Positions 42,216-42,441 of a stretch of 42,441 nucleotides of DNA are shown piece after piece (positions within the stretch are counted from its first letter, which is position 1; the number at the start of each line of letters is the position of its first letter). The notes under the pieces are model-generated. The model worked only from the letters and a program-made list of their open reading frames with translations, was not told where the DNA came from and searched no databases. The DNA comes from Escherichia coli (GTDB lineage Bacteria > Pseudomonadota > Gammaproteobacteria > Enterobacterales > Enterobacteriaceae). The stretch lies in NCBI RefSeq assembly GCF_003334385.1, contig NZ_QOWN01000037.1; one strand, 5' to 3'. The position numbers and the translations under genes were made by a program.

Positions 42216-42441
42216 GATAGTCGAATGGTGGGGAAAAGTCACTCGAATTACGCCTAATGTGCAGGATGCGTCATTTTACGCCTAATTCCACCGACATAGA
42301 GTTGCTTGCACAGTAAGCTCTGACGATGTCATCAGGTTTACAAAGTGAAATTGAGGATGCCTGAATAGCAAAAAAGCGCCTTTAGGGCGCTTTTTTACAT
42401 TGGTGGGTCGTGCAGGATGACTCGCTTCGCTCGCCCTTCGG

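Follow-up and report, generated by a model that had tools for sequence, protein, structure and literature searches.

Does a piece of a tRNA gene at the edge of a sequence mark the scar of an integrated element, a repeat derived from the tRNA, or a fortuitous resemblance? The question is raised by the last bases of the DNA analyzed here, a stretch of 42,441 nucleotides from Escherichia coli (hereafter the window). Compared with the intact tRNA-Lys(UUU) genes of K-12, TGGTGGGTCGTGCAGGAT agrees at 18 of 18 positions with the reverse complement of their 3' end, spanning the last two bases of the T-loop, the 3' strands of the T-stem and of the acceptor stem and the terminal ACCA, and identity with the tRNA drops to 5 of 23 positions in the next 23 nt, up to the window end. 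Both halves of what the initial annotation had claimed, namely an 18-nt reverse complement of the tRNA-Lys(UUU) 3' end and a continuation that leaves the tRNA, are thereby borne out, and the hairpin that it had placed beside the 18-mer is indeed there, in the form of an A6-stem-T6 structure. The 18-mer occurs a single time within the window, even with up to three mismatches allowed.

Routine searches are silent at this place: ARAGORN found no tRNA in the window and Rfam at its gathering thresholds gave no match at the window end, blanks that are explained by the shortness of the piece present, just 41 nt. With permissive settings, in fact, Rfam recovered these 41 nt from the window alone as a 5'-truncated match to RF00391 (model positions 84–130, 23 bits, E = 0.015). 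The full RtT-like element would extend to approximately position 42526; the window edge truncates it, which accounts for the odd look of the feature. In the last 642 bases of the window, a 240-nt spacer separates the nadA start from the hairpin. The coordinates of all features are collected in Table 1.

Table 1. Features in the window and in the records compared with it; positions are those of the window unless a record (L number) is named, L001 being the K-12 extension.
Feature	Position	Strand	Basis or remark
One end of lambdoid prophage, at the lambda attachment site	1-16881		
cIII thermoregulator	10216-10274		RF01804
Integrase ORF, the sole one in the window	15723-16793		
Lambda-type att core GCTTTTTTATACTAA	16867-16881		directly before ybhC
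ybhC	16928-18211		
nadA start	ATG at 42124	-	347 aa, TIGR00550 match, E = 2e-130
One copy of perfect 54-nt direct repeat (terminator and 18-mer)	42365-42418	.	repeat search
Intrinsic-terminator-like hairpin AAAAAAGCGCCCUAAAGGCGCUUUUUU (minus strand)	~42368-42398	-	fold; identity with lysQ terminator
18-nt tail ATCCTGCACGACCCACCA (minus strand)	42401-42418	-	tRNA-Lys(UUU) 3'-end copy
3'-terminal 41 nt of RtT-like element (RF00391)	42401-42441	-	partial Rfam match
Two copies of 54-nt repeat in K-12	L001 2924-2977 and 3080-3133		100% identical, spacing 156
RtT element in K-12	L001 2960-3085		RefSeq label 'RtT sRNA'; Rfam RF00391 match
Near-identical unit after lysV, valU operon	L008 1030-1220		tRNA-Lys, terminator, body, 18-mer, terminator
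Tandem arrays of Lys-type units	L023 1317-1665; L039 2140-2487; L123		

Each of the 5,426 complete E. coli genomes has a match to the last 500 bases of the window, in many cases at 100% identity, K-12 MG1655 included, and the last 3000 nt differ from K-12 MG1655 by one mismatch, so that the K-12 record is a valid stand-in for the missing continuation (window position = L001 + 39441). Extending the sequence, as the initial annotation had proposed, brings in an RtT element and then lysQ. The K-12 gene order is nadA, RtT sRNA, lysQ, lysZ, lysY, valZ, lysW, valT, lysT, cpoB and pal, on one strand throughout, with pnuC and zitB on the nadA side of the locus, and the statement of the initial annotation that the lysT operon lies past nadA was correct. 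The RtT element stands 30 nt 3' of lysQ, with which the lysT operon ends; the 3' end of its RF00391 match, which covers model positions 1–130, is exactly the 18-mer, and its tail repeats the tRNA-Lys upstream of it, CCA included, at 18/18 positions.

This arrangement is one of several at the locus. Within 1.3 kb of the K-12 lysT locus the 18-mer is found ten times, as the ends of five tRNA-Lys genes and of five RtT-like tails, and the same pattern holds everywhere in the operon: a tRNA-Lys gene, a spacer of 80–138 nt, the 18-mer and the lead-in to the next gene. Units 1–4 are of a short type (98–100 nt, tail included), and unit 5, the one that reaches into the window, has 156 nt, consisting of a copy of the terminator, a structured RtT body of about 100 nt and the 18-nt tail; a second terminator copy comes after it and then the nadA upstream region. 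The score of unit 5 against RF00391, 46.7 bits for a gathering threshold of 45, is barely over that threshold and makes it a marginal member of the family. A further copy is the unit that follows lysV, near-identical to unit 5 in sequence and layout and differing from it in its chromosomal locus and in a direct repeat that is a few bases longer, extending through GCTATCTGCGAT.

The hairpin, which reads AAAAAAGCGCC-TTTA-GGGCGCTTTTTT in the window, folds with −19.1 kcal/mol on the minus strand (z = −5.75) and with −15.6 kcal/mol on the plus strand (z = −4.68). With a GCGCC/GGCGC stem, additional A/U pairs and a subsequent run of six U it is predicted to be a rho-independent terminator, and its sequence is identical to that of the terminator directly 3' of lysQ. 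A simple terminator scan of the K-12 extension (L001 2650–4400, with both copies inside) listed neither copy of the hairpin, in our reading because the A and T runs pair with each other and leave no free T tail, and folding was used for the hairpin after this miss. The term "bidirectional terminator", used in the initial annotation, is right as to shape; an obvious use would exist in the minus-strand direction only, since the tRNA operon and nadA are both read on the minus strand. In the minimum-free-energy fold of the 196-nt stretch, the first terminator pairs with the second, which we regard as an artefact of two identical palindromic hairpins. The weak, sub-threshold Rfam matches at 42370–42400, among them AgrB, STnc420 and STnc130, all coincide with this hairpin, and a generic resemblance to terminators, not separate RNAs, seems to be behind them.

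Since unit 5 begins with a full copy of the operon terminator, 18-mer and terminator together make up a perfect 54-nt repeat, the partner of the window copy being the lysQ 3' end with its terminator, beyond the window. A second 18-mer flanking an island, which the initial annotation had suggested looking for, thus takes another form: the copy stands 156 nt away, at the lysQ end, and no island lies between.

Comparison of four further strains (L004–L007) with K-12 showed that the units are present or absent independently of each other, with breaks exactly at the 18-mer (L001 3225–4056). All five units are there in K-12 and all are missing from AR_0055, O157:H7 Z1831 has one and is also without one tRNA-Lys gene, GMF054 has units 3 and 5, and strain 582 has units 1–4. 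In the last of these, unit 5 alone is missing and the rest, operon and spacer up to nadA, is identical to K-12, the difference being precisely the 156-nt unit. At the level of the species, a query spanning the junction of the nadA flank and the unit was covered at 80% or more in 2511 of the 5426 E. coli genomes, roughly 46%, an approximate figure, as some false positives arise where BLAST joins pieces across repeats (e.g., H84). The junction query was used because a 102-nt body query also matches the lysV copy; that query found the unit body somewhere, beside nadA or lysV, in 3,243 genomes. Counting with the last 500 nt of the window proved misleading (80% or more covered in 5425 of 5426 genomes), since that query consists mostly of the nadA flank. 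Among the E. coli genome matches, H1, H33, H76 and H80, including laboratory derivatives such as W3110-P and JM83, carry extra tRNA-Lys or RtT pieces at the locus, which suggests that entire tRNA-plus-unit modules change in copy number.

A segment that is present or absent exactly between two repeats is what an attachment site would leave, and the fragment could be read as an attR-type partial tRNA copy, produced by integrase-mediated insertion into lysQ, of an element since deleted or lying beyond the window. The repeat runs from the T-loop to the CCA, the span typically duplicated by tyrosine integrases of the T-loop class, and, as at attL/attR sites in tRNA genes, a direct repeat from the T-loop to the tRNA 3' end bounds an insert that varies among strains, being present or absent exactly at the repeat in the comparison of strain 582 with K-12. 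The same polymorphism is, however, equally expected from recombination between direct repeats, and the contents of the insert differ from those of an integrative element: just 138 non-coding nt (terminator and RtT body) lie between the two copies, the lysQ-nadA interval has no annotated coding gene in either K-12 record, and the 5.5-kb K-12 locus holds no integrase or other mobile-element gene. Moreover, the 18-mer ends five tandem units in one operon, and the same core recurs after four other kinds of tRNA in many genera, with the tail of the local tRNA; the family is tied to five tRNA kinds. We consider the attachment-site reading largely refuted and very improbable. The initial annotation had left two options side by side, a tRNA-derived repeat and an att remnant; the first is the one that stood, the units forming a set of five in the lysT operon with a further one after lysV, and the second did not, with the second copy only 156 nt off and no integrase adjoining.

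The sole integrase of the window belongs to a lambdoid prophage that has an att core of its own, 25.6 kb from the tRNA-Lys fragment. The best phage match covers 63% of positions 9000–16900 with 96% identity, and the prophage is thus a mosaic and not lambda itself. Elsewhere in the window, at 18280–18350 on the minus strand, we observed a match to naRNA4 (RF02564; 60.7 bits for a gathering threshold of 59.5), which we take to be a REP-derived nucleoid-associated RNA family; it sits at the 3' end of a gene for a 761-aa hydratase.

The kinship of unit 5 becomes apparent beyond the lysT locus. A search for the shared core pattern, with each species represented by one genome, gave at least 120 loci (L009–L128) with at least 164 units. 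Among the 164 units listed, 126 follow a tRNA gene at a distance of no more than 700 nt, this tRNA being Lys(UUU) for at least 56 units, Tyr(GUA) for at least 41, Arg(ACG) for at least 20, Pro(UGG or CGG) for at least seven and Arg(CCG) for at least two, the last being degenerate and from Marinobacterium and Amphritea. Among the matches listed, 104 of the 126 units have, in the 18 nt that follow the core, the exact 3' end of the tRNA nearest to them upstream, and 12 of those 104 tails mirror a lineage-specific variant of the tRNA. This family rule, the position of the 18-mer inside a perfect 54-nt repeat and an expectation of about 0.02 matches even with three mismatches allowed leave no room for a chance match to the tRNA, a reading to which we give no weight. 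The matches listed are mainly from Enterobacterales (Citrobacter, Enterobacter, Klebsiella, Pantoea, Erwinia, Budvicia and Hafnia); those in unrelated G+C-rich genomes have no tail resembling a tRNA and seem to be fortuitous. Klebsiella sp., Pantoea sp. and L123 have Lys-type units in tandem, two to three per array, which are spaced by 156 nt, each have their own terminator and are paralleled by the repeated units of tyrT, with a spacing of 178 nt (L002).

The tyrT-tyrV operon of K-12 contains four strong RF00391 matches (133–138 bits), each with the tRNA-Tyr 3' end as its tail; Egan and Landy reportedly described there, in 1978, a 178-bp repeat with the tRNA-Tyr 3' end. These RtT/rttR elements and unit 5 share their position 3' of a tRNA gene, their tandem copies, the same covariance model, an end formed by a copy of the 3' end of the host tRNA through CCA, and the core ...AACG(G/A)CCCG(A/T)AGGG(C/T)GA...GAGT(A/C)ATCC. 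They differ in score, given above for both, in the tail (tRNA-Lys in unit 5, tRNA-Tyr in tyrT), in the outer closing helix GGGGAAGG/CCTTCCCC, which tyrT has and unit 5 is missing, in the intrinsic-terminator copy that unit 5 has of its own, and in their products, since the peptide tpr is encoded in tyrT and no RNA product or peptide is known for unit 5.

Alignment of twelve long Lys-type units gives a consensus with a T-arm-like hairpin, GCAGG-GTTCGAA-CCTGC, and a second GCAG that pairs with the CUGC of the tail, three inner hairpins being enclosed between them; overall, 6 of the 28 predicted pairs are kept through changes on both sides. Read from this alignment, the unit looks like the T-arm of tRNA-Lys with an insertion of about 65 nt between TTCGA and ATCC, a description that we found stated in no paper, in a literature where RtT is masked by papers on Rett syndrome. 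When the 5' strand was tested for type-specific pairing with the tail, the diagonal signal was weak, and we make no claim of covariation across tRNA types, as G-U pairing makes purine-rich strands promiscuous.

Measured against this consensus, unit 5 of E. coli is a worn member, with the T-arm-like hairpin and the outer closing strand largely lost. Of the 11 positions of the outer closing strand, four pair in unit 5, against 9–10 in units 1–4 and 10–11 in the long Lys units that other genera carry; non-standard outer pairs are marked in the Rfam alignment, the outer closing helix is absent, and only the shorter GCAG/CUGC pairing is kept.

The transcript of the operon bears on whether such a unit is expressed. 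In K-12, the lysT operon was found, by Northern analysis and RACE, to be transcribed as one RNA of approximately 1100 nt, which has its primary 3' end at the terminator that precedes unit 5; the lysQ and lysV terminators have the same sequence, RNase P takes the terminator off with a cut at U|G three nt past the CCA, and the "long spacers" of 133–150 nt remain as 3' trailers for RNase II, PNPase and RNase T to trim (Agrawal, Mohanty and Kushner 2014, PMC4176162). These long spacers are the internal RtT-like units of the operon. They share with unit 5 the tail, the 3' core and the operon itself, and differ from it in type, being short and without a T-arm-like hairpin or terminator where unit 5 is of the long type, and in position, inside the transcript where unit 5 comes after the terminator. 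From the lysT start to the lysQ end we count 1,099 nt, so that the reported size fits termination at the first terminator, before unit 5; a Northern band of this size leaves room for some read-through to the second terminator.

Such read-through, or a promoter of its own, would be the source of unit 5 RNA if the unit were an active small or cis-regulatory RNA, ended by CCA and acting on the stringent response or on nadA. Unit 5 does reach the gathering score of Rfam and bears the annotation "RtT sRNA", the fold of its 126-nt body is somewhat better than that of shuffled sequences (z = −2.36), the inner hairpins of long Lys-type units differ between genera by compensatory changes, and the tyrT copy (rtT RNA) is processed to a discrete RNA, for which modulation of the stringent response has been suggested (Bosl and Kersten 1991, as related in citing papers). 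Nevertheless, unit 5 lies behind a strong terminator that is the reported end of the operon transcript (PMC4176162), a promoter scan of the K-12 extension (L001 2650–4400) found no sigma-70-like promoter in the region, and the outer helix is lost. The unit is, moreover, missing from about half of the E. coli genomes and from an otherwise identical strain, and is thus dispensable. An active RNA at this site seems to us quite improbable. Being placed beyond the reported transcript end and having lost the outer closing helix, unit 5 is most likely a little-transcribed DNA duplicate and not an active RNA gene. On read-through it would carry a CCA-AU|G context for RNase P like that of lysQ, together with a terminator, and would be trimmed as the other long spacers are.

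We propose unequal recombination, or slippage during replication, between an identical tail and the tRNA 3' end as the way in which units multiply and are gained or lost, the stretch shared for the exchange at the lysQ-nadA site being the whole 54 nt. The same exchange would hold tail and tRNA identical. One point is left unexplained by a view of the units as pure junk duplicates: the conservation of the long Lys unit in Enterobacteriaceae and Erwiniaceae, together with the compensatory changes in its inner hairpins, hints at some constraint at the RNA level. It could be argued, alternatively, that the units are a conserved module, a T-arm with a three-hairpin insertion of about 65 nt, which in Enterobacterales and in some Oceanospirillales has settled 3' of the genes for five or more kinds of tRNA (Lys, Tyr, Arg-ACG, Pro-UGG and Pro-CGG), and which would be kept in step with the host tRNA because it acts as a minihelix-like decoy of, or a processing signal for, tRNA-maturation enzymes, or because it spreads by T-loop-directed recombination. 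We see a slim chance that this is so. That the fragment at the window end is the tail of a known tRNA-linked RtT-like repeat and, jointly with this, that the repeat is a probably little-transcribed duplicate, is in our judgment very probable.

The feature is already annotated and the kind of element has been described before, so the window itself contains nothing new in this respect. In K-12 the fragment belongs to the usual annotation of the lysQ-nadA spacer, and it signals neither an island nor a new element. As a caution for similar cases, tRNA 3'-end fragments beside tRNA operons in enterobacteria are usually the tails of RtT-like units and not att scars. The question that reaches beyond the window concerns the wider RtT-like family, in which the tails are kept identical to the host tRNA while the units are often gained and lost between strains.
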